From: Blastocatellia bacterium
Lineage (GTDB): Bacteria > Acidobacteriota > Blastocatellia > UBA7656
NCBI GenBank assembly: GCA_963765495.1
Contig: CAVXWP010000007.1
Span: forward strand, 544,001-608,000
Direction of reading: 5' to 3'
DNA: 64,000 nt
Positions 8,160 through 25,758 of this stretch are shown here, in pieces. Numbering within the stretch: position 1 is the first letter of the stretch; each line of letters begins with the position of its first letter. The notes beneath the pieces are model-generated. The model was not told the origin of the DNA. It saw only the letters and a list, made by a program, of their open reading frames with translations, and ran no database searches. The translations under genes were made by a program, and so were the position numbers.

Positions 8160-8193
8160 GGTCTCCGCTCATATCCGGCGGTTAAACGATCTG

Positions 8194-8235
8194 GGGCTGA
8201 AAATGCGGTTTTAGCTGCATTTTCAGCCCTTTTTT
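8194..8235 (+). terminator. Rho-independent terminator
   Basis: Stem GGGCTGAAAATGCGG / CTGCATTTTCAGCCC followed by a T-run, 35 bp after the stop codon. Confidence 0.85.
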
Positions 8236-8331
8236 ATTCGAGTCGAAAACCCTTGAGGGGCTTTCTATCTATGCCGCCTCAAAAAGAGCCCAATAAAAAG
8301 CTTTCAACAGGGAAAACCGGGGATTTTCTGC

Positions 8332-8360
8332 TTGACTTAAATTTACGACAAGCATAAATT
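8332..8360 (+). promoter_or_regulatory. Putative sigma70 promoter for the 2017-aa gene
   Basis: TTGACT-17 bp-TAAATT, about 410 nt upstream of the ATG at 8772. Confidence 0.55.
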
Positions 8361-8771
8361 AGCCTCCATCAAGGGGAAGCAGTAACCAATTCAGTATGAG
8401 TATTCAAGAGCGAACAAGGGTCTTCTTGCTGAGGGCGGCCTTTCAGCCTCAGCTTACGGGTTGAAGACTAAGACACACCTTATTTTTAGTCGGTCATGAA
8501 AGACCGGCTTGAAGTTTGATTCAACTTAACAATCTGTTTTTGTAAGGCAGCTTTGCGCTGCGCCTGATACGTCAGTTTCTCGTTTTGAGGCTCCGGCTTG
8601 GCATCGGTTTAGCCCGACAGCCACAGGCAACACGCCGGGTGATGATCAGCCGCTGGCCGCGATGTAGAAACTGTATATCGGCGAGTTGGGTGGTGGCGTT
8701 CCTTATCAAATGGGATAGGAGCTAACTGCTAATGAATAACATATCGAGAAGAGATTAATGGAGAGTCCCCA

Positions 8772-11700: not shown

Positions 11701-14700
11701 CCCGCACGCTCACGAGCATGACCTATGACGACAACGATGTTACCCATAGTCTGACCATCGCGGGCGGCGATCTCACGCTTGCAAGCGCCGCGACGGCGCT
11801 GACTTTGACAAACGGGCATATCCTCACCGGGGCCAATACTTTGATCCTGTCTTCCGGCACGGCCACTGTGACGCGAACAAACGGTTTCGTAGACGGCAAT
11901 TTCAGAAAGACCTACGCGGCGGCGGTCAACAAGACGTTCGAGGTGGGAACGGCCAACGGATTTTCGCCCGTAGCGGTCAACGCAACGGCCGGGACGTTCC
12001 CGGCTACGTTTACCGTAAAGGCGGTGCAGGGGCCGCAGCCCAATATCCTGTCGCCTCAACTGGCGCTGCAAAGATACTGGGTCCTCGACACCGCAGGAAT
12101 TACGACCGCCGATTTGACGTTCAACTATCTCGACCCGACCGACATCCCTGTCTCGGCTACCGAGGCGAATTTCGTCATCTTCAAGTATGACGGCGCGTTT
12201 ACAATGCCCGGCGGCACGGTCAACACCGCGGCCAATACGGCAAACATTACCGGCGTCATGTCGTTTTCAGACTGGACGCTTGCCGAACCGACCGCGCCTA
12301 CCGCTATCCAACTGGCGAGCTTCAGGGCCAGCAGCTATGACGCGGAGACGACCGGCGGCGGCGCTTCCGCTTCGAAGCGGAAATCGGGCGTCCTCATCGA
12401 ATGGAGAACCGGATTTGAGGTCGCCAACCTCGGCTTTAACATCTACAGACAGGAAGGCGAGAACCGCGTGCGGGTCAACCCCGATCTGATAGCGGGCTCG
12501 GCGCTGTTTGTAGGCGGCTCGACCGCATTGACCGCCGGACGCAGCTACAATTGGCGCGATCTCGGGTCGCGTGCCGGAGCAAACACCGATTACTGGCTCG
12601 AAGAGATCGACCTCAACGGCCAGAGCATCTGGCACGGTCCTGTAAGACCGACGCCTTCATCGGGCAGGCAGTTGTCATCGCTCGCCTCAGGCGACTCGAA
12701 GACGATGAGCGAGGTAAGCACCGAAACGGCCCGCTCGGGCGTGACCCGCCCCGTCGAGCAGTTCGCGCAATCGAGTAAATTCACAACCGCCCAGAAGAAG
12801 GCGCAACTTACCCTCGCGGGACAATCTGCGGTTAAAATAAGCGTGAGGCAGGCGGGCTATTACAGAGTCGGCCAGCCTGAATTGATCGCGGCCGGAATCA
12901 ACCCTTCGGTCGATCCGCGCCTGTTGCAGTTGAGCGTCAACGGGCAGGAAGTGCCGATCAGAGTGAGCGGAGAAAGTGACGGTCACTTCGATGCCGAGGA
13001 CGCGGTCGAGTTTTACGGCACGGGCGTAAACACGGCCTCAACGGATGCCCGCGTTTACTGGCTTGTGGCGGGGGCTCAGGCGGGCCGCCGCATTCAACCC
13101 GTGAGCGACGAGGGGACGGTCGAGTCGGGCAGCGGCTTTGCCTATACGGTTGAGCGCAGAGACCGCACGGTCTATTTCTCGGCGCTCAGAAACGGAGAGG
13201 CCGAGAACTTCTTTGGCGCGGTCCTTGCGCGCGATGCCGTGGATCAGACGCTCGCAGTCGAGCATCTGGACGGAGCGGGCGAGCAGGCGACGATTGAGGT
13301 CGCAGTGCAGGGAGTCACGCAGGTTCCGCACCGTGTCGGTGTCGAGATCAACGGCGAGTATGCCGGAGAAATGCTGTTTTACGGGCAAGCGGAAGGCAGA
13401 GGCACGTTTGCCGTATCGCATTCCTCGTTGAAAGAAGGCGATAACACGGTCAGGCTCGAATCGCGCGGCGGCCAAAATGATGTGAGCCTTGTGAATTACA
13501 TCAGGCTCACCTATCAGCACACCTTCATGGCTACGGACAATCTGTTGCGCGTGAATGCTTCGGGCAATCAGGAGGTGAGCATCAATGGATTCAGCACGTC
13601 AGATATTCGAGTGCTTGATGTCACCGACCCCGATAACGTTCAGGAAGTGCAGGGAAGCATAAAACGGGTGAAGGCGACTTATCAGGTGACCGTAGGCGTA
13701 CCGGGCGCGGGGGCGCGAAGTCTGCTTGCGATTGCCGAAGATCGGTTCGACGCTTCGGCGGCGGTTGTAGCAAATCAGCCTTCGAGCTTGCGGCAGCCGA
13801 AGAATGGAGCCGACCTGCTTATCATTACGCGAGCGGAATTCATCCCCGCCCTCGATCCGCTGGTTGCGCTGCGCCAGAGCCAGAAACTCGCCGTGGCGGT
13901 CATAGATATAGAAGACATCTATGATGAGTTTAGCTTCGGGCAGAAGTCGCCCGAGGCGGTCAGAGATTTCCTTGCCTATACGCGGGCAAGCTGGAAGAGG
14001 AAGCCGCAATATCTGCTCCTGGCAGGAGATTCCAGCTTCGATGCGAAGAATTATCTTGGGCTGGGAGATTACGATCTGGTTCCGTCGAAGCTTCTCGATA
14101 CTGTCTATCTCGAAACGGCGTCGGATGACTGGCTGGCGGATTTTGACGGAGACGGGCTGGCCGATATGGCCGTAGGCCGTTTGCCTTTCCGCTCTGTGGA
14201 TGAGGCGACCAGACTGGTATCAAAGATAGTCGGATATGAGAAGAAGGGAAGCTCGGCCTCGGTGCTGCTTGTAGCCGACCTGCCCGACGGGTACAACTTC
14301 GGGGAAACCAACGATCAGTTGAAGACGCTTGTTCCCGGAAACATTCGCGTTGTGGATGTGCGGCGCGGCGTAGACGATGATGCGACTACGAGGCAAAGGT
14401 TGATTGATGCTATCAACCAGGGTCAGAAGGTAGTCAATTACGTCGGGCATGGTTCGGTGACACTGTGGAGGGGCGACCTTCTGACATCGGATGATGTGAA
14501 TCAGTTAACAAACGCCGACAGATTGCCGTTGTTTGTGACGATGACGTGTCTGAACGGATACTTCCAGGACCCGACGCTTGATTCGTTGGCCGAGACCCTT
14601 TTGAAGGCCGAGCGCGGAGGAGCTATAGCCGTGTGGGCATCAAGCGGAATGACGATACCGGGAGATCAATCGTTGATGGATCGCGAGATGTTTAGAACGT

Positions 14701-14825
14701 TGTTTGGCACACCCGCCGGGCAGCGTCTGGGCGACCTGACGGTTAAAGCAAAGGCGGCGACCGGAGACAAAGACGTTCGGCAAACGTGGATACTGTTTGG
14801 CGATCCAAGCATGAGATTGAAATAA
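8772..14825 (+). CDS. Giant secreted protein: adhesin-like passenger (Fn3, G8-like, Gly/Thr/Asn-rich beta-helix), Ig-like domain and PorU-like C25 peptidase module
   Basis: Signal/TM segment. Fn3 (PTAPTGL...LNWTD...GLNPSTTYFWRVFAV). G8-like GGNWSNPATWVGGSVP...DNVTI. Junction FSDWTLAEPTAPTAIQLASF...EWRTGFEVANLGFNIYR. C25 motifs NYVGHG, MTCLNG and LFGDPSMRLK. Confidence 0.85.
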   Translation: MKISKKNLTLKKSSGRLIVATTLMFFLSVIFYPVTQGQNGSQGQNVIERATATLDGSALESGKKAQASRGLGESGAKGSGVSGSGSGSATKQSPNVGEVASNYTFATNTTASLTDMSTGTTQLLGPNIDDTASALTNIGFDFYFQGARFSQFSINENGVFRLGATAQSSTPYKPLAQAGIPIITAYGADQRTHAGDGKVHFKVTGSAPNRVLTVEWLNNQANFNTGGTADLTYQVRLYETTGVIELVYGSMTMSAAGAADANSRDPNIGFSSSNTVGTVGSVTAAQSGTPAPTFDGTSATAVANLYTAGAITVLTSATNGSRRIFSFTPPTPTAPTGLNFTGVAPTAMMLNWTDSPNETIYAIYRSTDGTNFTFDGTAAQNATSYAASGLNPSTTYFWRVFAVSEGALSTALSGSQMTSPAGIVMSTAAGGNWSNPATWVGGSVPIASDNVTIVDGATVTIDTAAVALNVTVGQGSSGILQYETTTARTLTVGQSVVVSAGGTFQSAATGTVTTHVLSVGTDLTNNGNIDFSTNSNTAGAGITFTGANDASFTLGAASTTDFKQTAGVTLNKGTNNTPVLTFLPGGTVTVLGANAVGFLTITNGTFKLSGANTFSNPVFNAAAYSIPATGGFWMNNANATVVGLNGTSTLTGMFRMSQGTFNIGIATGNSMGFATGSNILVEGGAINATGRFAVSASTSVITYNQSGGTITVCTIGNASTTLANFDLGTAIGSTVNITGGTIIVQLANTGGSGPRDYRHQAGTTGILSVTAGTLQLGNAASGAAKAFNIAGVLPNLVLNNASANHSATFLAPVAFNNISLDITINTGNTLNIGNNVFLMNGATLTNNGTLTANGASSNFVWFLTTAPQMYTGSGTVTAPVTNFAIQSDMGLTIDPASSNIVVGAIRLFSGNLINSNKITLGNGGATTGIVQIGNTTTPTAAGTFDVPFTFNLGTGGETVSYLRTTLTRTTGPEINPTRTLTSMTYDDNDVTHSLTIAGGDLTLASAATALTLTNGHILTGANTLILSSGTATVTRTNGFVDGNFRKTYAAAVNKTFEVGTANGFSPVAVNATAGTFPATFTVKAVQGPQPNILSPQLALQRYWVLDTAGITTADLTFNYLDPTDIPVSATEANFVIFKYDGAFTMPGGTVNTAANTANITGVMSFSDWTLAEPTAPTAIQLASFRASSYDAETTGGGASASKRKSGVLIEWRTGFEVANLGFNIYRQEGENRVRVNPDLIAGSALFVGGSTALTAGRSYNWRDLGSRAGANTDYWLEEIDLNGQSIWHGPVRPTPSSGRQLSSLASGDSKTMSEVSTETARSGVTRPVEQFAQSSKFTTAQKKAQLTLAGQSAVKISVRQAGYYRVGQPELIAAGINPSVDPRLLQLSVNGQEVPIRVSGESDGHFDAEDAVEFYGTGVNTASTDARVYWLVAGAQAGRRIQPVSDEGTVESGSGFAYTVERRDRTVYFSALRNGEAENFFGAVLARDAVDQTLAVEHLDGAGEQATIEVAVQGVTQVPHRVGVEINGEYAGEMLFYGQAEGRGTFAVSHSSLKEGDNTVRLESRGGQNDVSLVNYIRLTYQHTFMATDNLLRVNASGNQEVSINGFSTSDIRVLDVTDPDNVQEVQGSIKRVKATYQVTVGVPGAGARSLLAIAEDRFDASAAVVANQPSSLRQPKNGADLLIITRAEFIPALDPLVALRQSQKLAVAVIDIEDIYDEFSFGQKSPEAVRDFLAYTRASWKRKPQYLLLAGDSSFDAKNYLGLGDYDLVPSKLLDTVYLETASDDWLADFDGDGLADMAVGRLPFRSVDEATRLVSKIVGYEKKGSSASVLLVADLPDGYNFGETNDQLKTLVPGNIRVVDVRRGVDDDATTRQRLIDAINQGQKVVNYVGHGSVTLWRGDLLTSDDVNQLTNADRLPLFVTMTCLNGYFQDPTLDSLAETLLKAERGGAIAVWASSGMTIPGDQSLMDREMFRTLFGTPAGQRLGDLTVKAKAATGDKDVRQTWILFGDPSMRLK

Positions 14826-14831
14826 GATAAC

Positions 14832-14908
14832 CCGGTTTGACAGGACTTACGGGATTAAAAAGATCAGGAGAAAATCTTTTTGAATCCCCTACGTCCTGTC
14901 AACCCCGG
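14832..14908. repeat. Long imperfect inverted repeat between convergent genes (bidirectional terminator or REP-like)
   Basis: TTGACAGGACTTACGGGATT...AATCCCCTACGTCCTGTCAA with an inner AAAAAGAT/ATCTTTTT pair. Confidence 0.65.
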
Positions 14909-14959
14909 ATTTCATTTACGCATTCCCAATAAACGGAGGTTGGTTTAATCTCTACGGGT

Positions 14960-15367
14960 TTAATGGGGCTGGATGCCGGAAGGGTTACAGGTCATCTCGA
15001 TGACGGTGTATTGCTTCTTTAGCCTTTCAAGCTCTTTACTCTGCTGATCCAGAATCTCCAAATAATCGGCGGGTGGATTGCCCCAGCATCCCGCGAGCCT
15101 GTAAAAGCGAATCTCTCTGCCGGTCCGGTCAACGAGTTTGCCAGGATCGCATCGCGCTTTCATCTCCGTCAATTTGTCTCGGACGGATATCTGTTTGATC
15201 GCGCCCGTCTCTTTCCCGGGCTTTGCGTCTTCGGTCGAGACGATGTCGGAAAGTTTTATATCAGGCGGAAGACAATCCTGGAGCGACTCCTGATTTTTGT
15301 GGCACGTCGTCATAGGAAGGCTCAACCCGAGCCAGAGCGCGAAACTGAGAGCGGCAAACAATTGCAT
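14960..15367 (-). CDS. Small exported Cys-containing hypothetical protein
   Basis: 135 aa with a hydrophobic N-terminus and a GGAGG RBS upstream on the minus strand; five Cys including GCWGNPP. Confidence 0.7.
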   Translation of the reverse strand: MQLFAALSFALWLGLSLPMTTCHKNQESLQDCLPPDIKLSDIVSTEDAKPGKETGAIKQISVRDKLTEMKARCDPGKLVDRTGREIRFYRLAGCWGNPPADYLEILDQQSKELERLKKQYTVIEMTCNPSGIQPH

Positions 15368-15595
15368 GATATTCCTCCCGGCGTGCTGGTCATGTGTCTT
15401 TATATATGCCAGGGTCGGGCGCGGTCAATGTGCGGTCAATTTCTTGTGGAAGGGGGTAAATATATTCGACGCGGAAATACATGCGAGGAGCTTTGAAAGA
15501 CAAAGGCTCACAGCGAAAGCTATAGATTTTTGATGGCTGCATGCCTTAGTGATAAATCATCCTTTTTGTGGTGCTGAAATCCTTACTATATACCC

Positions 15596-15625
15596 TTGAC
15601 GAATGGCACAGGCTGGAAGTAGGAT
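15596..15625 (+). promoter_or_regulatory. Putative sigma70 promoter for the 1915-aa gene
   Basis: TTGACG-18 bp-TAGGAT. Confidence 0.4.
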
Positions 15626-15919
15626 AGCGCCACACCAGTGATTGTTGAGTTGAGGAGGCTTTTTCAAGACCTGTAACCTGGGATTATGCTCTGCTGATTA
15701 CAATACAAAAGCAAATCGCGTCGGTTTTGAAATGCTAAATAAATATCTGTGAGTTTTGCGGGCCGGAAATGCGCTGGTTTTACTTGAATCCATCAGTGGA
15801 AATAGCTCTGATAGGTATAACCGAGGATTTGCTCGGATTGAGCGCGAATCCTTCGAAGAACTGGCGCTGAATCTTCCGGGTTTCGTTAAGGCATAAATAG
15901 CATCAAGAGGAGACATAGA

Positions 15920-18900
15920 ATGAGGGTTTCAATAAAGCGCGCAAGGCATTTGGGAAGTCTGGCAATTATTGTTGTTGGATTGGCAGGCTGGCTGGTTTTG
16001 CCGGGACTTTTAGGCCGGGCTACAACATCCGCTCATATCGGCGAACAGGGGTTGTCAAAGGGAGCACAGGTAGAGGCCGGACTCGACCCCCAACGCCAAA
16101 AAGCGCTTGAGAACCTCTATGCTCAATTTACGGCAGGCGCACCTTTTTCAAGAGAGGAATCCAATATCCTGACCAGATTTGGCGCAGGTGAGAAGATATA
16201 CGATCTTGAGGCCGATATAGTAATCTCTCGCGCGCTTTACGCTTATTACATTCTGGGCAAGGCATTGACGCGTGATCAGCAGGTTTTGCTCGACAGGTAC
16301 AGTTCAGCCGTTGCGCACCGAAACACCGATATAGCCGACCTGAAAGAACAGCTACAGCAGCGGCGCAAGGCTGCCGCCGCAAATGCGCCGCCTCGGACGA
16401 CACCCGAAGTTGCGCCCGCAAATGACACCTGCGCAGGCGCTCAGGTTGTTCCCGCCGCCGGGCCGTTTCCTTTTCTGACTACAACCGTCGATATCACCGA
16501 CGCGACAGGCACAAATGAACCGGCGCTCCCTACGTGCACGTCACCGGCATCGCCTCCCGATCCGACCGTTGTCACGCGAGGCGTCTGGTACACCTTTACT
16601 CCGTCAGCGACGGCAACCTACACCCTGGCCACCTGCGCGGAAGCGCCCACCGCTACGACGGTTGACGATACGGTTATGGCAATCTACACCTCCACGGGAG
16701 GTTGCGCCGGTCCGTTCACTCAGTTGGCGAATGATTCCGGGGATATTGACGGGTGTAACGACGACAGTTGCGTCACTTTACAATCATCATTGCAATCGCA
16801 AATAACGACGCGTCTCAATGCGAGCACTACATATTACATCGTGATCTCGCTTTATGGCTCAGACCCACCAATAACGGGCATGACAAATGTCCAGATGAGA
16901 ATTACCAAAGAGAACCCTCCTGTAAATGACACATGCGCGACAGCGCCTTCGCTATCGCTCAATACGCCTGTCACAGGGTCTTTAATAGCAGCGCAAAATG
17001 ATTATCAACTAAATAATTCAGGTTGTTTTTCAGGCGTAGGGCAGACGCCGTCAACCGCAGCGGGTCGCGATGTGGTCTATTCTTTCACAGCGCCTTCGGC
17101 GGGTACCTACTCATTCAGAGTTACAAAATATAACGGCAGCGAGAGCGATCTGGTTATGTATGCCGCAAGCACCTGTCCGGCGGCAACGCCCGGAACCCCT
17201 GTAACCGTTAGCGGTTGTCTGGGCGCATCCAATCGGTTCGTTTCCGATTTCTTTGGAGGCCCATTCTCTTCGGAGGAAATTACTTGTCTTTCGCTTACTG
17301 CGAGCCAGCAGATCTTCATATTCGTAGACCAGGATAGTTTGAGCACGGGCAGCACTTTTACCATCGAAGCGAACCAGTGTGTTCGCGAAACCGAGGCGAA
17401 TAATACTCCTGCCACAGCCAATCCTTTCGTATGCGGTATAGAAGGAAGTATTACTCCGGCAGGAGATGCGGATTTTTATTCTCTGGGGACATTTACGTCC
17501 GGCTCGCGTCTGTTTGCGCTGGTTGATGGCGTGGCCGCCAACGGGGACGATTTCGATCTGCGCGTGACCACAACCACCGACACACTTGAGTACGACGATA
17601 TAGATTCAACCGAAGCCTTTGGCGATAACTCGGGAACCGTTGCGGGTACGCCTCTAACGAGCGCGGCAACGTTTCTGAGGGTGAGCTATTTCGATCCCTC
17701 AACGGCGAGCGAGCCATATCGTGTGTACGCGGCGGTGCAACCTCCAATCGCTTCGGCTACTTCGGAAACCGAGCCGAACAACACAATAGGAACTGCCAAT
17801 TCGGCTGCGAATAACTATTTCACTGGAACGTTGAGCGGCCCGTCGCCATCGACCGATATAGACATCTATAGCTTCACGGGGCAGGCCGGAGACCTGGTAT
17901 TCATCGGTCTGGATGGCGACCCGCTTCGAAACAACACTCCGATCAATGCCAGGCTGGCATTGCTGGACTCGTCCGGCAACTTAATACTTGAAGTCAACAA
18001 CAACAATTCTTTTTCAAATACGACTTCGGGTGCGGGCAGCCTGACATCAACGACACCAAATTCGCCTGCCGAGTCTATCGTATTTCGGGTGATGACAGGA
18101 GGCACTTATTACGCGAGAGTAGCAATTGATTCATTCGCCACCGGAGCGGTTGCAAGCGGAGATTATCTGCTTTCGATAGCAAAGAATTGTACGACAGGCC
18201 CTTCGGTCAGCAATTCAATATCAGGGACGATCTCTTATTGCATCGACAACTCAAAGAAAGTCCCCAACGCCACCGTCCAGACTACCAGCGGTTCCCCTTC
18301 CGCTTCCACTACTACTAACGCCTCCGGCTTCTATCAACTCGATAACCTCGGCACTGGCCCTTACACCGTTGCTCCTTCCAAAACCGGTGCCGTCTCCGGC
18401 ATCTCTGCTCAGGATATCGGTATCCTCCGCCGCCTCGCCGCTGGCATCGATACCCCCACTCCCTGTCAATCCATCGCTGGCGATACAGATAACAACGGCT
18501 CGCTCGGCGCCCAGGACATCGGCTTCCTTCGAAGATTTGTCGCTCAACTTACTACCACTGGCATCACTGGCTCCTGGAAATTCTCTCCCGCCTCTAGGAG
18601 TTATCCCTCGCTTGTTTCAAATCAAACAAACCAGGATTACGATGCCTTGCTGATCGGAGATGTTGACGGCAACTGGACCCCCGCTGCTCCTGATCCTGCT
18701 TCATTTCAGAAGAGTCAGGCTCCTTCGGCCACTAACCTTGCCCTCTCTTTGCCCAGTGTCGTTGCTCCTCCCGGTTCTACTGATGTCTCTATCCCGGTCA
18801 TGGTTAACGGCACTCTCACAAACGGCGATTTCGTTTTGGGCTACACAATCGAGATCAGTTTCGATCCCAGCGTGCTGGTTCCACATTCGCCCTCATTCAA

Positions 18901-21667
18901 CACGACAGGGACGGTCTCATCGACCGGGGTCGTCACAGAGAACACGGGTGTGTCGGGGAGGCTCCGACTTGTGGTCGATTTCCAGAATCCGCTGATATTC
19001 ACAGGGCAGCAGACGCTGATAATATTGAGGTTCGATGTGGTAGGGACACAGGGACAGATGAGCGGGCTCAACTGGTTCTTCACGGAATTTGGGAGCGGCC
19101 CACCTGCCGTCACCACCACGACTACAAACGGCAACTTCACCGTCACAAGCCCCACTGCCGTAAAAGTCGATGCCTTCAAGGCCACGGGCTTTGACAAGGG
19201 CGTATATCTCCAGTGGCAGACCGGGTTTGAATCTACTAACCTCGGCTTCAACATCTATCGCCAGCAGGCGGGCAAACTCTCTCTTGTTACGCCTGAAATA
19301 TTGGCCGGGTCGGCGCTTTTGACAGGTGACACGCCCTTGCTTGCCGGGCGGAAATATTCGTGGTGGGATAATTCACCCGATAGTAAACAGGACGCGCTCT
19401 ATTATCTGGAAGACATTGACCTCAACGGCACAAGGAGCCTGCACGGGCCGATAGTTGCAACCAGAGCATCAGGCAATCCGCCTGCTGGCTCTCGGGCCGA
19501 GTTGTTGAGCCGGATGGGCAGAGGCAAGGCTACAATCAGCGACTACGTCGCTTCCTCCTCCCCTGGCAGCGCCCAACTGGCAACCGTTTCCTCAAAGAAA
19601 GGATTACAAAACTCCAGGCGAGAGACAGTGCCTGTTGATCTGGCGACCTCCTCTGCCATAAAGATGTGGATAGGCAATAGCGGGCTCTATCGCCTCACTC
19701 AGCCGCAACTGCTGAGCGCCGGCCTCGATTCCGGGATAGATCCGCGACTCTTGCAGATGTATGTCGACGGGCAGGAGGTTCCAATCCTTGTCACTGGCCA
19801 GGAGGACGGAAGATTTGATGCCACGGACACAGTGGAATTCTACGCTTCGGCAATCGACAGCCCGTTCACCTCGAAGCGGGTCTACTGGCTTGTGGCAGGG
19901 ACAGTGGCGGGAAGACGGATAACAAAAGTGACGAGTCCCGGGAAGGGGCAGAGCAACGCTAGTTTTACCTCGACCCTGGAGCGACGAGACAAGACGATCT
20001 ACTTTTCGAGTTTGAGGAACGGGGATGAGGAGAACTTCTTTGGGCCGGTCATAGCCTCGCAGGAAGTCGATCAGTCGATAGATGTGAAAGATATGGCAGC
20101 GGGAGGAGGAACTGGGGCAGTGCTTGAAGTGGGATTACAGGGAGTAAGTGCGGTCAACCATCGAGTAAAAGTGAGGTTGAACGGGACGGAGTTGGGAGAG
20201 GTAGATTACAGTGGGCAGGGAGCAGGAGTAGGGAGATTCACACTCTCAAGCGGGCAACTGGTGGAAGGAAGAAACGACATCAAGATGGAGGGGGTGGGAA
20301 CAGGAGGAGATGTGAGCCTGGCCGAGTATGTGAGAGTGAGCTATGAGAGGAGGTACAAGGCGGAAGGAGATGAGTTGAGATTCCGAGCAGAGGGGGGCCA
20401 GGAGGTAAAGATAGGAGGGTTCACAAGCGAACGGATACGAGTATTTGATGTAACGGAGGAAGGGAATGTAGTGGAGATAGGAGGAGCGATAGAAGAGAGC
20501 GGGAACGGGTATGAGATAGGGATCAAGGTAGGAGGAGCAGGAGAGAGAGAGATGATGGCGATAGAGGAAGGGGAGGTGAGAGAGGTAGGAGAGATGAGAA
20601 AGAACGAGGCGTCGAAGCTGAGAGCGACGAGCCAGGGAGCGGACCTGTTGATAATCACGACGGGAGAGATGGGAGGAAGTCTGGAAGGGTTGAAGGCGCT
20701 GAGACAGAGTCAGGGGATGGCGGTAGCGATAGTGAAGGTGGAAGACATCTATGACGAGTTCAGCCAGGGAGAGAAGACGCCGTATGCGATAAGAGAATTT
20801 CTGATATATGCGAAGAGGAACTGGAAGAGGAAGCCGGGATATGTGTTGATGGGAGGGGATGCGAGTTACGACCCGAAGAATTATCTGGGAGCGGGGGAAT
20901 GGGATCTGGTGCCGACGAAGTTGGTGGACACGGCGTATCTGGAGACGGCCTCAGATGAATGGATGGTGGACGAGGATGGAGACGGGATAGGAGAGATGGC
21001 GATAGGGCGACTGCCGATAAGGAGCGAGGAAGAAGGGATGAGGATGGTAGGGAAGATAATGAGTTATGAGAGAGGAGTATCGAGGAGGAGTGTGTTATTG
21101 GTATCGGATGCGAATGATGGATACAACTTTGAGCAGGCGAACGAAGAGTTGAAGGGGATGATACCGAAGGGGACGAGGATAGAAGAGGTAAAGAGGGGGC
21201 AGATGAGCGAGGAGGAAGCGAGGGCGAGGGTGATAGGAGGGATAAACGAAGGGCAGGCGATAGTGAGTTATGCAGGGCACGGGTCGGTGGATATATGGAG
21301 AGGAGAGATATTGAGGAGCGAGGATGGAGAGATAATGAGGAATGGTAATCAGTTGAGTGTATTTCTGATGATGACGTGTTTGAACGGATATTTTGAGGAT
21401 CCGATGTTGGAGAGTTTGGGAGAGGCGATGATGAAGGCGGAGAGGGGAGGAGCGGTAGCGGTATGGGGGTCGAGCGGGATGTGTGAAGCGGGAGAGCAGG
21501 CGGCAGTGAGCAAGGAGATGATGAGGGAGCTAAACAGTGTGGAGGGGTTGACGAAGAAGAAGGTGACGATAGGAGAAGCGGCGAGGAGGGCGAAGGGGAG
21601 GATAGGAGATGTGGATGTAAGGAGGACGTACGTGTTGTTGGGAGACCCGACTATGCGCCTCAGATAA
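15920..21667 (+). CDS. Giant secreted protein: Cys-rich NDTC repeats, PPC-like ETEPNN domains, dockerin-like and cohesin-like domains, Ig-like domain and PorU-like C25 peptidase module
   Basis: GAGGAG RBS and signal/TM segment. PANDTCA and PVNDTCA repeats; ETEANNT and ETEPNNT repeats. Duplicated AQDIG(I/F)LRR with GDTDNNG. Cohesin-like ISFDPSVL...LRFDVVG. Junction SPTAVKVDAF...QWQTGFESTNLGFNIYR. C25 motifs SYAGHG, MTCLNG and LLGDPTMRLR. Confidence 0.85.
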   Translation: MRVSIKRARHLGSLAIIVVGLAGWLVLPGLLGRATTSAHIGEQGLSKGAQVEAGLDPQRQKALENLYAQFTAGAPFSREESNILTRFGAGEKIYDLEADIVISRALYAYYILGKALTRDQQVLLDRYSSAVAHRNTDIADLKEQLQQRRKAAAANAPPRTTPEVAPANDTCAGAQVVPAAGPFPFLTTTVDITDATGTNEPALPTCTSPASPPDPTVVTRGVWYTFTPSATATYTLATCAEAPTATTVDDTVMAIYTSTGGCAGPFTQLANDSGDIDGCNDDSCVTLQSSLQSQITTRLNASTTYYIVISLYGSDPPITGMTNVQMRITKENPPVNDTCATAPSLSLNTPVTGSLIAAQNDYQLNNSGCFSGVGQTPSTAAGRDVVYSFTAPSAGTYSFRVTKYNGSESDLVMYAASTCPAATPGTPVTVSGCLGASNRFVSDFFGGPFSSEEITCLSLTASQQIFIFVDQDSLSTGSTFTIEANQCVRETEANNTPATANPFVCGIEGSITPAGDADFYSLGTFTSGSRLFALVDGVAANGDDFDLRVTTTTDTLEYDDIDSTEAFGDNSGTVAGTPLTSAATFLRVSYFDPSTASEPYRVYAAVQPPIASATSETEPNNTIGTANSAANNYFTGTLSGPSPSTDIDIYSFTGQAGDLVFIGLDGDPLRNNTPINARLALLDSSGNLILEVNNNNSFSNTTSGAGSLTSTTPNSPAESIVFRVMTGGTYYARVAIDSFATGAVASGDYLLSIAKNCTTGPSVSNSISGTISYCIDNSKKVPNATVQTTSGSPSASTTTNASGFYQLDNLGTGPYTVAPSKTGAVSGISAQDIGILRRLAAGIDTPTPCQSIAGDTDNNGSLGAQDIGFLRRFVAQLTTTGITGSWKFSPASRSYPSLVSNQTNQDYDALLIGDVDGNWTPAAPDPASFQKSQAPSATNLALSLPSVVAPPGSTDVSIPVMVNGTLTNGDFVLGYTIEISFDPSVLVPHSPSFNTTGTVSSTGVVTENTGVSGRLRLVVDFQNPLIFTGQQTLIILRFDVVGTQGQMSGLNWFFTEFGSGPPAVTTTTTNGNFTVTSPTAVKVDAFKATGFDKGVYLQWQTGFESTNLGFNIYRQQAGKLSLVTPEILAGSALLTGDTPLLAGRKYSWWDNSPDSKQDALYYLEDIDLNGTRSLHGPIVATRASGNPPAGSRAELLSRMGRGKATISDYVASSSPGSAQLATVSSKKGLQNSRRETVPVDLATSSAIKMWIGNSGLYRLTQPQLLSAGLDSGIDPRLLQMYVDGQEVPILVTGQEDGRFDATDTVEFYASAIDSPFTSKRVYWLVAGTVAGRRITKVTSPGKGQSNASFTSTLERRDKTIYFSSLRNGDEENFFGPVIASQEVDQSIDVKDMAAGGGTGAVLEVGLQGVSAVNHRVKVRLNGTELGEVDYSGQGAGVGRFTLSSGQLVEGRNDIKMEGVGTGGDVSLAEYVRVSYERRYKAEGDELRFRAEGGQEVKIGGFTSERIRVFDVTEEGNVVEIGGAIEESGNGYEIGIKVGGAGEREMMAIEEGEVREVGEMRKNEASKLRATSQGADLLIITTGEMGGSLEGLKALRQSQGMAVAIVKVEDIYDEFSQGEKTPYAIREFLIYAKRNWKRKPGYVLMGGDASYDPKNYLGAGEWDLVPTKLVDTAYLETASDEWMVDEDGDGIGEMAIGRLPIRSEEEGMRMVGKIMSYERGVSRRSVLLVSDANDGYNFEQANEELKGMIPKGTRIEEVKRGQMSEEEARARVIGGINEGQAIVSYAGHGSVDIWRGEILRSEDGEIMRNGNQLSVFLMMTCLNGYFEDPMLESLGEAMMKAERGGAVAVWGSSGMCEAGEQAAVSKEMMRELNSVEGLTKKKVTIGEAARRAKGRIGDVDVRRTYVLLGDPTMRLR

Positions 21668-21783
21668 CGGCTCTGACATTTTGAAAAGAGCGGATTATGC
21701 AAAGCAGGTTTGTATTTTGACGAATGGGGGATGTGGTATTGTCTGTTCTGGATTTACCTCGGCATAAAGTGAGAACCACCTGA

Positions 21784-22608
21784 ATGGAGAAAATTGACCG
21801 CCTGGGCTGGGCGGATGGGATCTCTTTTACCTCCTATGGTGTGCGGATAGGTATTAGAGTAAACAGGACCGAAGCTCTTGAGCGCATAAAAGAGCATTTG
21901 CCTCCGGGATGGAAGTTCTCGCGGGCAAAGATCGTTGATCGGTTGTATTCGCTCATAATTGGCGGCTCGGGAGCGAAGCCTAATGTCCGCCGCTTCAATA
22001 TACTTTATGCCGATCTGTTAAAGATCGCTCGAACGCTCGATCTGGATGCTGTGCTTGATACGCTCGAATCGGATTTGCAGCTTTATGTTGCAGAAGAGGC
22101 GCGTCGGAGAGTCTTTGTGCATGCGGGCGTCGTCGCATGGGACGGGCAGGCCATAGTAATCCCCGGACGCAGCCATTCGGGGAAGACCACTCTGGTGACG
22201 GAATTCGTGCGAGCCGGAGCAGTTTATTATTCGGATGAATATGCAGTACTCGATCAACAGGGGCGCGTCCATCCTTATCCTCGCCCGCTTGGAATAAGGG
22301 AAGGCGACTCCAGCAAACAGACAAAATATCCTGTGGAAGAGATAGGCGGTAGGGCCGGGATTAAGCCCTTGCCAGTTGGAATGGTGGTGGTAAGCAAGTA
22401 TAGAAATGGGGCGCGGTGGCGGCCTCGTAAACTGACTCCCGGGCAGGGGGCGCTGGCTTTACTCGACAATACGGTCTCTGCCCGCAGACAGCCGGAAAAG
22501 GCCCTTTCAGCCTTCAAACACATAGTGCCTCAGGCGGTTGTGCTTAAGGGCGAAAGAGGTGAAGCCAGCGAGGTTGTTAACTCGATATTAACTAGGATAA
22601 TGGCTTGA
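21784..22608 (+). CDS. HprK-related (HPr kinase-like) P-loop kinase
   Basis: FVHAGVV...IPGRSHSGKTTL (Walker A)...YYSDEYAVL...PYPRPL. This is the HPr kinase-like signature of kinases in PqqD-associated cassettes. Confidence 0.8.
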   Translation: MEKIDRLGWADGISFTSYGVRIGIRVNRTEALERIKEHLPPGWKFSRAKIVDRLYSLIIGGSGAKPNVRRFNILYADLLKIARTLDLDAVLDTLESDLQLYVAEEARRRVFVHAGVVAWDGQAIVIPGRSHSGKTTLVTEFVRAGAVYYSDEYAVLDQQGRVHPYPRPLGIREGDSSKQTKYPVEEIGGRAGIKPLPVGMVVVSKYRNGARWRPRKLTPGQGALALLDNTVSARRQPEKALSAFKHIVPQAVVLKGERGEASEVVNSILTRIMA

Positions 22609-22625
22609 ATTATTAAAGGTTTTGA

Positions 22626-22655
22626 TTGACTTTTTCAGGCATTACGTTGTATAAC
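22626..22655 (+). promoter_or_regulatory. Putative internal sigma70 promoter for the PqqD-peptide gene
   Basis: TTGACT-18 bp-TATAAC; GGAG RBS before the ATG at 22709. Confidence 0.55.
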
Positions 22656-22708
22656 CCAAGCACGTGAAAAACGATGCTTATAGCTGCTTTTAAGCTCATG
22701 GAGAGTAT

Positions 22709-23188
22709 ATGAAGAATACAGATCAAGTTTTACCGCTCGCTCGGAAGGACGGACTGGTTGTTCAAGAGTTACCTGATGAAGTATTAATCTATGATTTAGA
22801 TCGACATAAAGCTCATTGCCTCAATCCAACTGCTGCTCTTGTCTGGAATCATTGCGACGGCCAGATGACTATGACCGAGATGATAGGTATCCTGAAGGAA
22901 GAAACACACTCTCCAATAGATGAGGATGTGGTGTGGCTGGCTCTTGATCAATTAGCCAAAACCCATCTGTTATCTGAGCAGGTAATCCGGCCTACAGGAA
23001 GCGGGAAACTCAATCGAAGAGACGTGATGCGACGCATAGGCTGGGCAGCGGCAGTGGCACTTCCACTGGTCACAAGCATCGTCGCCCCATCTGCGGTTCA
23101 GGCCGTGACCTGTAGAGCACCCGGACAACCCTGCACTACAGGCGTGCAATGCTGTTCAGGTGTGTGCAACACTACAACGTGCGCGTAG
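22709..23188 (+). CDS. PqqD/RRE-domain protein fused to a twin-arginine leader and a Cys-rich peptide (putative RiPP precursor)
   Basis: Residues 1-90: ELPDEVLIYDLDRHKAHCLNPTAALVWNHCDG...LDQLAKTHLL (PqqD fold). Then NRRDVMRR, a hydrophobic stretch, AVQA and VTCRAPGQPCTTGVQCCSGVCNTTTCA. Confidence 0.85.
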   Translation: MKNTDQVLPLARKDGLVVQELPDEVLIYDLDRHKAHCLNPTAALVWNHCDGQMTMTEMIGILKEETHSPIDEDVVWLALDQLAKTHLLSEQVIRPTGSGKLNRRDVMRRIGWAAAVALPLVTSIVAPSAVQAVTCRAPGQPCTTGVQCCSGVCNTTTCA

Positions 23189-23257
23189 TCCGAATACGCC
23201 GTCTATCAACTGACATTATCGGCTGCTGCCTCTATCGGTGAGTGAAGGTCTATCTTC

Positions 23258-24328
23258 ATGGTCGAGGCCGACGCAGATAATTCACTTGGAGAACAGGTTT
23301 CAGCCGTCCTTACTGGAGCCTGGCGTTGTGATCCTCCTGTTCCCGACTTTTCAGTTCGAGAATTGAGTGAAGTCGCTCCCCTGCTTTTAGGGTCCGGGGG
23401 AGCGGCTTTGGGCTGGTGGCGAGTTCGCCTATCTCATCTTAAAGACTCTCCTGCGGCGCTGGAACTGCAACACGCCTATCGCATTCATACGTTGAATTCC
23501 TTTGTGCACGAACGGGCGATAAAAGAGGTTTTCGCGCTCTTGCGCTCGGCGGGGATCGAGCCTGTGCTCGTTAAAGGCTGGGCGATTGCCCGCCTCTATC
23601 CTGAAAAATGTCTCCGCCCTTACGGAGACCTCGACCTTTGCTTTCGGCCCGAACAATACGAGCAGGCTTCGGATGTGCTGGAGAGTCCCGAGGGCAGGCA
23701 TTACAACGTAGACGCGCACGAAGGGTTTGCCAAACTCGACGATTACAGCGTAGACGAATTGTACAGTCGTTCCGAGTTGATAGCTCTGGATAACATCGAA
23801 GTGCGCGTGTTGGGGCCTGAAGATCATCTTCGCATTCTGTGCGTGCACCTGCTCAGGCATGGGGCGTTTCGGCCTTCGTGGTTGTGCGACATCGCGGTGG
23901 CGCTCGAAAATCGACCCGCCGACTTCGATTGGAATCGATGTCTTGGAAAAGAGACCCGAAAGGCCGGCTGGGTTGTCTCATCGCTCGCTCTTGCCCATAG
24001 ATTACTGGGCGCGAGAGTGGATGATACTCCGGCAGCGGGCGCAAGCGCGCGGCTTCCGTCCTGGCTGGTTGCGCACGTCCTCAAGCAATGGGAAGCCCCC
24101 TATCCGGCGCTCTACCCGCCGATGAGTTATTATCCCCCGTTGATTACTTACTTCCGTCATCCGGCTGGATTTCTGAAGGCTCTTCGCAAGCGATGGCCCG
24201 ACCCGCTTGAGGCTACGATAAGATTGGAAAGACCGATAGATGAAGCCCCGCGGCTCCCTTATCAGATAGGTTATTGTCTCTTGCGATTAAAGAACTTTCT
24301 GGCGAGCCTGCTGAAATCATCCGAATGA
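23258..24328 (+). CDS. Nucleotidyltransferase family protein (NTP_transf_5-like)
   Basis: GIEPVLVKGWAIARLYP...RPYGDLDL...VDAH...PEDHLRILCVH...WLCDIA motifs. Confidence 0.8.
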   Translation: MVEADADNSLGEQVSAVLTGAWRCDPPVPDFSVRELSEVAPLLLGSGGAALGWWRVRLSHLKDSPAALELQHAYRIHTLNSFVHERAIKEVFALLRSAGIEPVLVKGWAIARLYPEKCLRPYGDLDLCFRPEQYEQASDVLESPEGRHYNVDAHEGFAKLDDYSVDELYSRSELIALDNIEVRVLGPEDHLRILCVHLLRHGAFRPSWLCDIAVALENRPADFDWNRCLGKETRKAGWVVSSLALAHRLLGARVDDTPAAGASARLPSWLVAHVLKQWEAPYPALYPPMSYYPPLITYFRHPAGFLKALRKRWPDPLEATIRLERPIDEAPRLPYQIGYCLLRLKNFLASLLKSSE

Positions 24329-24331
24329 TGC

Positions 24332-24434
24332 GTAAAGAGTGAAGAGTGATGCGTGCCTTTCAGGCAATCAACTGTTAACCATCTCATCGCTGACTTCATA
24401 AATCACGAATCACGTATCGCTCCTCACTCTTTAC
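24332..24434. repeat. 24-bp imperfect inverted repeat between convergent genes
   Basis: GTAAAGAGTGAAGAGTGATGCGTG (24332-24355) and CACGTATCGCTCCTCACTCTTTAC (24411-24434), 3 mismatches. Confidence 0.65.
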
Positions 24435-24441
24435 ATTTCAT

Positions 24442-25758
24442 CTAATCTGCCGCGCTTGCCTTCTCCGTGATTATTGATGTCGATTCGAACAGAAGCGACT
24501 GCAAGAGGAGCGAATCGTGGAAGGATGAGTATATATCCTCAAACTCATCCTGCAACTGAGTGGCATATTCTGCCGGATATGATCTTTCGACCTCCTGTTT
24601 TATCTGCTCAATCGAAAGACCCCGCAAAAGGCACCGGAGTATGAACAAACAATCCTCATCGAAGTAGTCCATACCGAGTATATTTGGCTCTGCCGATCCC
24701 AGCACTTTCGTGGTTGAAAACTCCATCACCCAATCGGCAACCGTGTCGACAGAATCCTTTTCGGGAAAGCGTTGCTTGACCAGATCGAGGATCATCTCTC
24801 TTTGCGGCACGTTCAGCAGCAACGCCATAAAGAATCGGTGGTCGCTTTCGGTCAAATAGGCCCTTCGTCTCGACATATTTAACTGTCTCTGGAGTTCGGC
24901 AAAGACCCGGGGAACAATATCCATCAACTGCCCATGCTTGAGGCGGGCCTTTTCGAGCAGCTTATTGAAGCGTTCTCTGCCGGTCGAAAGCTGAAATATG
25001 CGTTCCATCTCGTCGGAGGTCAGGTGTTGAAATGCCGTATAGAGTATCGAAAAAGAGGTGTGAAAATCTGAGTGAGCGATCATCTCACTGATCATGGAAT
25101 CGGCGTCCTGATGCTTCATCCTGAGGAGCAGGGCGGCGCTCTGAACCTTCTTTGTGGATGAGATTTCAGCAAAGAAAGGATTCGAGGCAATATAAGGTTT
25201 CAGATATTCAAACTGCGGCAACACGCCGGGGGTTTGATAGGTTCTGATTGTGATAGTCGTCGATGGTCTGTCAAGATGAAACAGCGAGTGTATGTAGCGG
25301 TCGCCGGGCAATATCTTTCTGATCTGGCCCTTCTTCAGCAACTCGACCTCCTTAAAAACAGTCTGCCCGACCTGAAGATGAGAGTTTATCTCAACCTCCC
25401 GGTTGAATCCGTACTGGCTGTGGATGCTCGACCCGGAGAGCACCTGAAAGGCCCCTGAAAAGGCGTGCTGATGGATGCTTGTGGTTCCATCGAGCCAGTA
25501 ATAGATATCTATATAAAACCGTGGTCCGCTATAGAGCGTGATCGGGGGGTCGCCGAAACGGGCGTCAATGTCTTGCTGCGGAGGAATCTGTATGGCTTTG
25601 CCAAGCCACTCGATTATGTTCCAGGGGTCGACCTGCTCGCTCGGATTGGTTTCGGCGAGCGCCTGCGCAGCAATGTCGGGGAATATATCTTCGTTATAAT
25701 TTTTGTCTCTCCATCGCTGTTCTACAAGCGATCCGAGTCTCTGAAAAAAGTCCATCAT
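24442..25758 (-). CDS. Hypothetical protein with an N-terminal cupin-like (cysteine dioxygenase-like) domain
   Basis: 438 aa with a GGAGG RBS. TSIHQHAFSGAFQVLSG and YIHSLFH fit the HxH...H cupin metal site; the C-terminal half looks helical. Confidence 0.65.
   Translation of the reverse strand: MMDFFQRLGSLVEQRWRDKNYNEDIFPDIAAQALAETNPSEQVDPWNIIEWLGKAIQIPPQQDIDARFGDPPITLYSGPRFYIDIYYWLDGTTSIHQHAFSGAFQVLSGSSIHSQYGFNREVEINSHLQVGQTVFKEVELLKKGQIRKILPGDRYIHSLFHLDRPSTTITIRTYQTPGVLPQFEYLKPYIASNPFFAEISSTKKVQSAALLLRMKHQDADSMISEMIAHSDFHTSFSILYTAFQHLTSDEMERIFQLSTGRERFNKLLEKARLKHGQLMDIVPRVFAELQRQLNMSRRRAYLTESDHRFFMALLLNVPQREMILDLVKQRFPEKDSVDTVADWVMEFSTTKVLGSAEPNILGMDYFDEDCLFILRCLLRGLSIEQIKQEVERSYPAEYATQLQDEFEDIYSSFHDSLLLQSLLFESTSIITEKASAAD

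Follow-up and report, generated by a model that had tools for sequence, protein, structure and literature searches.

RiPP recognition elements (RREs), which belong to the pathways of peptides that are ribosomally synthesised and then post-translationally modified (RiPPs), read leader peptides in trans. In protein export, the proofreading chaperones TorD, DmsD and NapD of the twin-arginine translocation (Tat) pathway bind the twin-arginine signal of their own substrate, and the AprA alkaline protease with AprI is an example of an operon in which a secreted protease is accompanied by its periplasmic inhibitor. Knottins, prized as drug and bioinsecticide scaffolds, are regarded as eukaryotic. In lasso peptide pathways, as described in the accessible passages of PMC8498205, a kinase phosphorylates a Ser residue and a nucleotidyltransferase (NTase)-type enzyme then adds hexoses to the phosphate. 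The available text of PMC12710340 also describes DUF2282 precursors and DUF2063 RRE proteins (bufferin type), in which a Cys-containing precursor combines an export signal with an RRE-dependent pathway. We analyzed a stretch of 64,000 nucleotides, hereafter the window, from a Blastocatellia bacterium of the Acidobacteriota (assembly GCA_963765495.1, contig CAVXWP010000007.1, positions 544,001 to 608,000). A gene located at 22709-23188 on the + strand, here called pqqd, encodes a protein of 159 amino acids (aa) composed of an RRE domain, a twin-arginine leader, and a core with a knottin Cys pattern. We propose, with moderate confidence, that this protein is the precursor of an exported, cleaved, and disulfide-knotted peptide whose own RRE handles its leader.

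Among described systems, the lasso peptide clusters with a B1 protein (such as TbiB1) and an HPr-kinase-like/nucleotidyltransferase pair (paeninodin, pseudomycoidin) share with this locus the RRE fold and the adjacency of the two enzyme types. They differ from it in that the RRE is carried here on the polypeptide of the presumed substrate, no B2 protease is adjacent, the leader is of the twin-arginine type, the core has a six-Cys knot pattern, and the tails lack a conserved terminal Ser. By analogy with the Tat proofreading chaperones, the RRE may be a domain devoted, in the cytoplasm, to retaining a Tat signal for as long as the cargo is not ready, but the binder would be a domain of predicted RRE fold, fused in cis, and the cargo a 27-aa peptide instead of a cofactor enzyme. 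In the bufferin type, unlike here, the signal is N-terminal and of the Sec type, the RRE resides on a separate protein, and the Cys residues are enzymatically modified for metal binding. As in the AprA/AprI pair, the gene of a large secreted protease is directly accompanied by that of a small, putatively exported protein, whereas that operon has no RRE, kinase or NTase, its inhibitors are not knottins, and its proteases do not belong to the C25 (gingipain) family found here. Finally, the animal inhibitor cystine knot (ICK) peptides (omega-hexatoxin/atracotoxin-Hv1a, U3-scytotoxins, and O-superfamily conotoxins) share with the core the C-C-CC-C-C framework with loops of 6, 5, 0, and 3 residues, and with its family the loop 1 motif C-[LI]-P-S-G-x-x-C followed by CCS, and they overlay its model at 0.5-1.1 Å. 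The protein differs from them by its bacterial origin, by 132 aa of RRE plus Tat-like leader in place of a eukaryotic signal and propeptide, and by Pfam scores that stay below the cut-offs.

Re-reading of the sequence returned the open reading frame (ORF) and the leader and core exactly as quoted in the original prediction, and the three-part anatomy proposed there agreed with Pfam, AlphaFold2 (AF2) models, PDB matches, and family conservation. The RRE or PqqD-like domain (aa 12-90; 22742-22978) was recognized by Pfam family PF05402, the AF2 model, and Foldseek. A variable linker (aa 91-101; 22979-23011), with the highest mean column entropy of all regions, separates it from the twin-arginine leader or signal (aa 102-132; 23012-23104), which contains the RR motif, a hydrophobic stretch, and an AxA site. 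The 27-aa core (23105-23185) follows, and its ICK-type Cys framework C6C5CC3C4C was defined by Cys spacing, the tail profile, and the AF2 tail model. All these segments are on the + strand. The leader segment (aa 101-132) reads LNRRDVMRRIGWAAAVALPLVTSIVAPSAVQA and the core reads VTCRAPGQPCTTGVQCCSGVCNTTTCA, with 6 Thr and 1 Ser.

The PqqD family PF05402 matched aa 24-75 with an E-value of 5.4e-7 and 30.3 bits, above the gathering cut-off of 23.4, and the only NCBIfam matches of the protein were ScmD and PqqD, both far under their cut-offs. In the full-length AF2 model, built on a 130-sequence alignment (mean predicted local distance difference test, pLDDT, 82.8), strands 16-20, 25-29, and 34-38 are followed by helices 40-48, 55-66, and 72-84 with a pLDDT of about 90, and the bbb-aaa order that defines an RRE is thus present. 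Among PDB entries, Foldseek ranked first the structure of TbiB1, a lasso B1 protein, together with its leader (5v1v; E 9.4e-4, TMt 0.74, root-mean-square deviation (rmsd) 2.6); further matches included another B1-leader complex (6jx3) and PqqD (5sxy). Judging from this model, the N-terminal domain is a lasso-B1-type RRE/PqqD domain, and it is probably cytoplasmic. A complex prediction of the RRE (aa 1-95) with aa 96-159, run without controls, scored 0.28, under the mark of 0.32, and speaks neither for nor against binding.

Since the closest structures are lasso B1 proteins, and since a kinase and NTase pair is known from lasso clusters, the gene could also be the remnant or satellite of such a cluster, encoding a B1 protein that happens to bear a tail. 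We rejected this explanation, which appears extremely improbable, because no linked B2-type protease (PF13471) was found beside the RRE, the tail is conserved in thousands of relatives, and the cores are of the Cys-knot and not of the lasso type. The genome of the window (G000) has two PF13471 matches (C1:1270609 and C2:544915), located tens to hundreds of kb from its three copies of the gene. The first of these, a lasso B2-type (Transglut_core3) gene at C1:1270609-1270902, lies about 52 kb from the paralogue on C1, is unlinked to the family, and possibly marks an ordinary lasso cluster.

The leader of the window protein consists of N-R-R-D-V-M-R-R, a hydrophobic stretch with P119 and V-T-S-I at 121-124, P127 at position -6 from the predicted cleavage site, and V-Q-A at -3 to -1. 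The corresponding motif across 269 members of the family is [LIVM]-S-R-R-E-V-M-R-R-[LI]-G, with RR in 268 of them. Counting from the first Arg, Pro occupies +16 and +24 in 78% of members each, the second of these being the -6 position, V-T-S-I falls at +18 to +21, A, V, S or T at +27, and A at +29 in 81%. Position -3 is A, V, S or T in 85% and position -1 is A, S or G in 87% of these proteins; the first Cys is found at +32 in 167 of them, and the residue following Cys I is variable (L 26%, R 15%, I 9%). The family consensus contains the S/T-R-R-x-hydrophobic-hydrophobic sequence, the moderately hydrophobic stretch, and the AxA of twin-arginine signals, and the segment reads as a twin-arginine consensus followed by a classical signal peptidase I site (Pro at -6, small residues at -3 and -1). 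It lies not at the N-terminus, where a Tat signal is expected, but behind a folded domain, from residue 102 on. TatC is encoded in the genome (E 1.2e-64). The invariant Pro at -14 and the Val at -12 from the predicted cut resemble the lasso leader motif.

Conservation was further analyzed in 130 aligned orthologues, namely those sharing the C6C5CC3C(3-7)C tail. As R103, R104, P119, P127, and all six Cys are invariant among them, and RR is kept family-wide, the Cys/RR/Pro pattern is, on the evidence of the alignments, not due to chance. V121, T122, S123, I124, A132, and S150 are kept at 90% or more. The mean column entropy was 0.89 bits for aa 102-132, 1.28 bits for the RRE, 1.79 bits for the non-Cys positions of the core, and 2.77 bits for the linker, and the segment from RR to AxA is the best conserved region of the protein. 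An ordinary signal peptide does not surpass the rest of its protein in conservation, and the conservation of this one implies that a specific partner may read its sequence.

The RRE of the same polypeptide is a candidate for this partner. AF2 placed in the leader two helical segments (103-117 and 129-134) on either side of a strand at 121-125 (V-T-S-I-V), at a pLDDT of about 65-70. A five-residue strand assigned by DSSP needs a partner of similar length; as the model of the tail on its own shows only bridges of one and two residues and no partner for this strand, strand 121-125 probably pairs with the RRE sheet. Leaders in solved RRE complexes pair with the RRE sheet.

The C-C-CC-C-C six-Cys framework is present in the tail of the window protein, and its spacing C6C5CC3C4C is the commonest in the family (107 of 269 tails). 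With the whole protein as a query, Pfam matched the tail to the spider knottin family Toxin_29 with a sub-threshold E-value of 1.3e-3. The scores of the tail against the cut-offs were 19.9/25 for Toxin_29, 18.9/23.2 for UPF0506, and 18.6/25.1 for Conotoxin, and all four Pfam matches of this tail were under their cut-offs, so that it cannot be assigned to a named family. When 50 tails from related loci were compared with Pfam, the families matched were of the knottin type only (UPF0506 with 32 tails, Conotoxin 30, Conotoxin_I2 18, Dickkopf_N 18, Omega-toxin 17, and Toxin_29 7). A profile built from these 50 tails retrieved 44 matches among PDB sequences at E ≤ 10, every one of them a knottin. 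The best matches were U3-scytotoxin-Sth1h (9.4e-5) and omega-atracotoxin-Hv1a (1.1e-4), trypsin-inhibitor knottins were also among the matches, and in the alignment with omega-atracotoxin-Hv1a, loop 1 (C-I-P-S-G-Q-P-C) and CCS line up with the bacterial consensus.

The predicted structures are consistent with these matches. The pLDDT of the tail was 81-91 in the full-length model and 77.9 in the tail-only model, which overlays U3-scytotoxin-Sth1a at an rmsd of 0.5 Å over 25 columns (TMt 0.74), with nemertide alpha-1 following at 0.7 Å and omega-atracotoxin at 0.8 Å. Of the 16 Foldseek matches of the tail, at least 13 were, by entry title, knottin toxins or inhibitors, with rmsd values of 0.5-1.3 Å for the best and TMt values up to 0.75, all at E-values above 0.4, the peptide being very small. 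The assignment of the tail to the knottin scaffold is well supported by the profile, and the models suggest a similar fold.

A word-indexed search returned 1483 relatives at E ≤ 1e-3, and an exhaustive HMMER search of cluster representatives (50% identity) returned 6200 clusters at E ≤ 1e-3, of which 3966 reach E ≤ 1e-10 and 325 reach E ≤ 1e-30. The best 120 relatives are mostly of about 160 aa and are 55-67% identical to the window protein across nearly the full length; those that carry a name are called only "PqqD family peptide modification chaperone", and they come from Blastocatellia, Pyrinomonadaceae or Acidobacteriota. Among 270 relatives inspected (120 + 150), RR followed by a hydrophobic stretch was found in 269. 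Their 269 tails show more than 25 Cys patterns and a length of 9-163 aa (median 31), some with tandem modules; the number of Cys is even in 262 and odd in 7, and 191 tails have six. The expectation of a conserved leader combined with hypervariable cores was thus confirmed by these tail patterns and by the difference in entropy between leader and core, and it corresponds to the conserved leader and variable core of a RiPP precursor. The gene family was present in 33 of 401 genomes sampled from the phylum, with a concentration in the taxonomic family of the window (2 of 2 genomes) and in a sister family (21 of 27 genomes). The genome of the window has three copies, each with a different Cys-rich tail: the paralogue at G000:C1:1218455-1218889 (L002/L092) has a 6-Cys tail, C5C6C4C2C7C, unrelated to the other tails, and the paralogue at G000:C2:233676-234065 (L003/L093), located between its own kinase and NTase genes, has an 11-Cys tail of about 65 aa.

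The even Cys counts favour export to an oxidising compartment, as far as sequence can tell. A tail that binds metal without forming a disulfide knot, in the manner of a metallothionein or a bufferin, would also account for the high Cys density, and copper-binding RiPP precursors with signal peptides exist (DUF2282/DUF2063, in the available text of PMC12710340). This explanation is very unlikely and was rejected: the spacing is that of the ICK framework, the profile matched knottins only, the Cys counts are even, and no MNIO or DUF2063 gene was found adjacent in Pfam and NCBIfam scans of the window.

Seven longer relatives of 292-339 aa, six of which were read (all except P0272), keep the RRE, the leader, and one or more knottins and have an extra domain behind. 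In P0273, a Peptidase_S74 domain directly follows the knottin (E 6.8e-10, above the cut-off), and the precomputed annotation gives the same domain after the knottin of P0199; Peptidase_S74 is the self-cleaving chaperone of endosialidases. The four others (P0271, P0274, P0275, and P0276) gave weak matches to Intein_splicing/Hint families (E 5e-4 to 8e-4, below the cut-offs). Behind the leader, they have a single knottin module or two, then a Gly-rich linker, and lastly a domain of about 140 aa that begins with Cys and ends with S-H-N. A natural knottin-Hint fusion of this kind could give the knottin a C-terminal thioester. With self-cutting domains at its C-terminal side and a putative signal-peptidase site at its N-terminal side, the Cys-rich module fits a mature, free peptide.

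Other variants were also observed in the family. Two knottin-like modules in tandem, with 10-14 Cys in total, are present in P0122, P0136, P0185, P0190, P0213, P0232, and P0238. At two distant loci, L091 (G009:C61) and L085 (G199:C1), the RRE and the RR-leader are followed by almost no tail: one protein stops a few residues past the AxA without any Cys, and the other has two Cys and a long polar tail. No stand-alone leader-plus-core protein of 30-86 aa was found, which, the search being word-based, is weak evidence for the absence of split forms.

The gene is flanked on the same strand by two genes that the original prediction had overlooked. Upstream, 21784-22608 encodes an HprK-related P-loop kinase (TIGR04352, E 2.8e-16); its 59.4 bits against a cut-off of 200 do not allow its assignment to the HPr-rel-A system. 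Downstream, 23258-24328 encodes a nucleotidyltransferase-fold protein of the NTP_transf_5 family (PF14907, E 2.6e-28). Reading of the two translations revealed no signal or transmembrane segment. As the same enzyme pair tailors lasso peptides, these two proteins are the best candidates for tailoring enzymes. Farther upstream, three giant C25 peptidases are encoded in tandem on the + strand, of 1718 aa (3003-8159), 2017 aa (8772-14825), and 1915 aa (15920-21667; PF01364, E 1.6e-74). Each of them begins with a signal peptide and has its catalytic domain at the very C-terminal end. The N-terminal parts of these paralogues (3003-21667) contain varied binding-type domains (BNR/sortilin, fn3, PPC, and CarboxypepD_reg).

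The neighbours were counted around 92 gene copies in 80 related loci. A kinase homologue was located within 400 bp upstream in 38 of 83 copies and an NTase homologue within 2 kb downstream in 48 of 84. For a C25 catalytic domain within 1.5 kb upstream the count was 23 of 69 copies, and for C25 within 6-7 kb it was 26 of 44. Single loci contain repeated C25-pqqd pairs whose gaps measure 17-56 bp, and beside the C1 paralogue of the window's genome a C25 protein of 1095 aa starts 57 bp downstream. Distant Acidobacteriota families of high GC content, with quite different tails, have kept both arrangements, C25-pqqd and kinase-pqqd-NTase. The C25 peptidases had been put forward as candidate maturases or targets; their genomic link to the gene holds, given this recurrent adjacency, and the choice of candidate maturases has to be widened to the kinase and the NTP_transf_5 protein. 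C25 peptidases are widespread in the phylum (161 of the 401 sampled genomes, including one unpublished genome, G152); they occur in 25 of 33 genomes with the family versus 136 of 368 without it, a mild enrichment among related genomes that are not independent of one another.

These arrangements bear on another explanation, which we consider unlikely, namely that the protein gives rise to a plain secreted disulfide peptide that inhibits the co-encoded proteases, in the periplasm or outside the cell, without any enzymatic modification. The RRE would then be no more than a chaperone, within the same molecule, of its own export signal, much as the Tat proofreading chaperones are for theirs, and the kinase and NTase would serve, for example, a polysaccharide pathway. 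Seven copies that follow a C25 gene at gaps of 17-56 bp have neither kinase nor NTase alongside, other members adjoin an S8 subtilase or a CHAT-TPR protein, and the occurrence of knottin trypsin inhibitors among the PDB matches and the variable residue after Cys I are in line with this possibility. However, the kinase-pqqd-NTase order is kept across distant Acidobacteriota families, including loci without C25, which is hard to explain if both enzymes are unrelated to the protein.

Right behind the module begins an exopolysaccharide (EPS) locus (26149-57560, + strand). It contains genes for a TPR protein with a CBM-like end and for Wzy_C/O-antigen-ligase-like, Wza-like, and Wzc-like proteins, about eight glycosyltransferase genes, and genes encoding a PaaK-like ligase, a heparinase-like protein, a NeuD-type acetyltransferase, and PseC/PseB-like enzymes. 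In many relatives, the module is accompanied by the genes of the TPR and Wzy proteins.

The position of the gene at the head of this locus (TPR, Wzy-like, Wza-like, and Wzc-like genes), which recurs in relatives, may also point to an uncleaved bitopic membrane protein. The RR-hydrophobic segment would be a signal anchor between a cytoplasmic RRE-like winged-helix domain and a Cys-knot ectodomain, as in a sensor or adaptor of the ToxR/CadC or anti-sigma type, and the protein would couple periplasmic events (C25 activity, EPS assembly or redox state) to the cytoplasmic kinase and NTase. We regard this as rather unlikely. In its favour, the RRE fold derives from the winged helix, the conservation of the hydrophobic segment far exceeds that of ordinary signal peptides, as would be expected for a transmembrane helix with specific partners, and the tails of some members have few or no Cys. 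On the other hand, a site of the signal-peptidase-I type (Pro at -6, small residues at -3 and -1) is kept just ahead of the Cys-rich part, the hypervariable and modular tails, tandem knottins, and self-cleaving additions are better suited to a released product, and genomes contain several paralogues, each by its own protease gene.

For a precursor whose own RRE handles its leader, the following course can be envisaged. The protein would be made in the cytoplasm, where its N-terminal RRE would stay, and the leader would serve both as a twin-arginine export signal and as a recognition sequence of the RiPP type. The most likely reader of this sequence would be the RRE of the same protein, with the P-x-V-T-S-I stretch pairing as a beta strand. 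From the RRE, the precursor would pass to the neighbouring HprK-like kinase and NTP_transf_5 enzyme in the cytoplasm, whose modification may serve to tailor the peptide or act as a gate for its export. Next, the leader would insert as a hairpin via Tat, or possibly Sec, and signal peptidase I would cut after the AxA site, at A132. The 27-aa core would thereby be freed outside the cytoplasm and oxidised to a cystine-knot fold with three disulfides, of the putative connectivity I-IV, II-V, III-VI in which, as in knottins, the third disulfide threads the ring. Its final partners would be the secreted C25 peptidases, and the most plausible role is that of their cognate inhibitor or regulator.

Several points weigh against this proposal. 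A Tat signal behind a folded domain of 100 aa is unusual, and it is not obvious why a peptide with three disulfides should need Tat. The contact of RRE and leader, the modification, the cleavage, and the route of export are predicted steps only, as is the masking of the signal until processing that the original prediction assumed, and strand 121-125, on which the contact partly rests, was modelled at a moderate pLDDT of about 67. With regard to the enzymes, the kinase or the NTase is missing beside many copies, and none of kinase, NTase, and C25 was found near 8 of 44 well-flanked copies; in the five of these eight loci that were viewed, the neighbours include a TPR-CHAT protein, an S8 subtilase, a DUF4214 protein of 2608 aa, and a sigma-54 activator. 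Lasso kinases act on the C-terminal Ser. Only 43 of the 130 orthologues have a tail ending in Ser or Thr, so that a lasso-type chemistry at this position cannot be general. Of the candidate phosphorylation sites, T122 and S123 are kept in 26 of 40 copies with an adjacent kinase and in 26 of 45 copies with none, and CCS behaves alike; no difference was thus observed. As for the fold of the core, every Pfam match to a knottin family lies below its curated cut-off, the Foldseek E-values of the tail are high, and AF2 may rebuild a knottin from the Cys pattern alone.

If generalized, the proposal would define a new and very large class of bacterial cystine-knot peptides. Their precursors would contain their own RRE and an export signal that is also the recognition sequence, the kinase and the nucleotidyltransferase-fold enzyme would be responsible for tailoring or export gating, and the released knottins would be cognate inhibitors or regulators of C25 peptidases. 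It would then stand as the first large ICK family of prokaryotes, with a possible common ancestry with animal knottins such as the omega-hexatoxin-like peptides. We advance this extension tentatively and regard it as somewhat doubtful.

In the literature searched, neither an RRE-substrate fusion nor RiPP leaders of the Tat type nor such a family of bacterial knottins was found described, although the supplements of PMC12710340 may list such proteins; in the accessible portion of the RRE-Finder report (PMC7470986), no passage matched such fusions. In the available text of the 2025 RRE survey, 21% of the proteins with PF05402 go beyond a discrete RRE in size and bear no other annotation (PMC12710340). 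The family is, with respect to these sources, a combination of known modules that is unreported and occurs on a very large scale. If its maturation logic holds, it could represent a new peptide class, and an RRE built into the precursor would, if true, be a new logic for peptide maturation. It would also tie RiPP-type recognition to Tat/Sec export, a connection absent from the literature searched. For genome mining, an RR motif in a PF05402 protein of about 160 aa would offer a simple handle, and thousands of bacterial knottin variants, with hypervariable loops, tandem modules, and self-cleaving fusions, would constitute a ready-made library together with a bacterial production route. Lastly, the close association of these genes, at EPS loci, with those of giant C25 peptidases may explain how very large secreted proteases are controlled in abundant soil Acidobacteriota.

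Although the anatomy, the conserved leader with hypervariable cores, and the C25 linkage of the original prediction held, the promoter that it had assigned to the gene could not be verified. A consensus scan of 21600-24500 gave 3 promoter-like sites, versus 2.6 ± 1.7 in shuffled sequences, none of them in the 100-bp gap upstream of the gene. By eye, TTGACT-18-TATAAC can be read in this gap at 22626-22655, and a GGAG is located at 22700-22703, 5 nucleotides ahead of the ATG. A search of sequencing runs gave no RNA run carrying this DNA; in one DNA run from a soil metagenome, 0.70 of the sampled words were present.

Between the NTase gene and the EPS locus, an ORF of 438 aa on the opposite strand (24442-25758, -) has copies of 53-57% identity beside the NTase gene at L032, L036, and L039. 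No family was found for it in Pfam, NCBIfam, PDB sequences or the named Atlas families, and it may belong to the module. Two copies of the pqqd gene look broken (G069:C9:451175-451622 and G125:C53:282-743), one being split across two frames and one containing an in-frame TAG. Finally, six loci (L006, L014, L016, L062, L075, and L082) come from metagenome-assembled genomes labelled Nitrospinota, Clostridia, Binatia or Methylomirabilota, and their genes are 50-66% identical to those of Blastocatellia; these labels may reflect mis-binning or lateral transfer.

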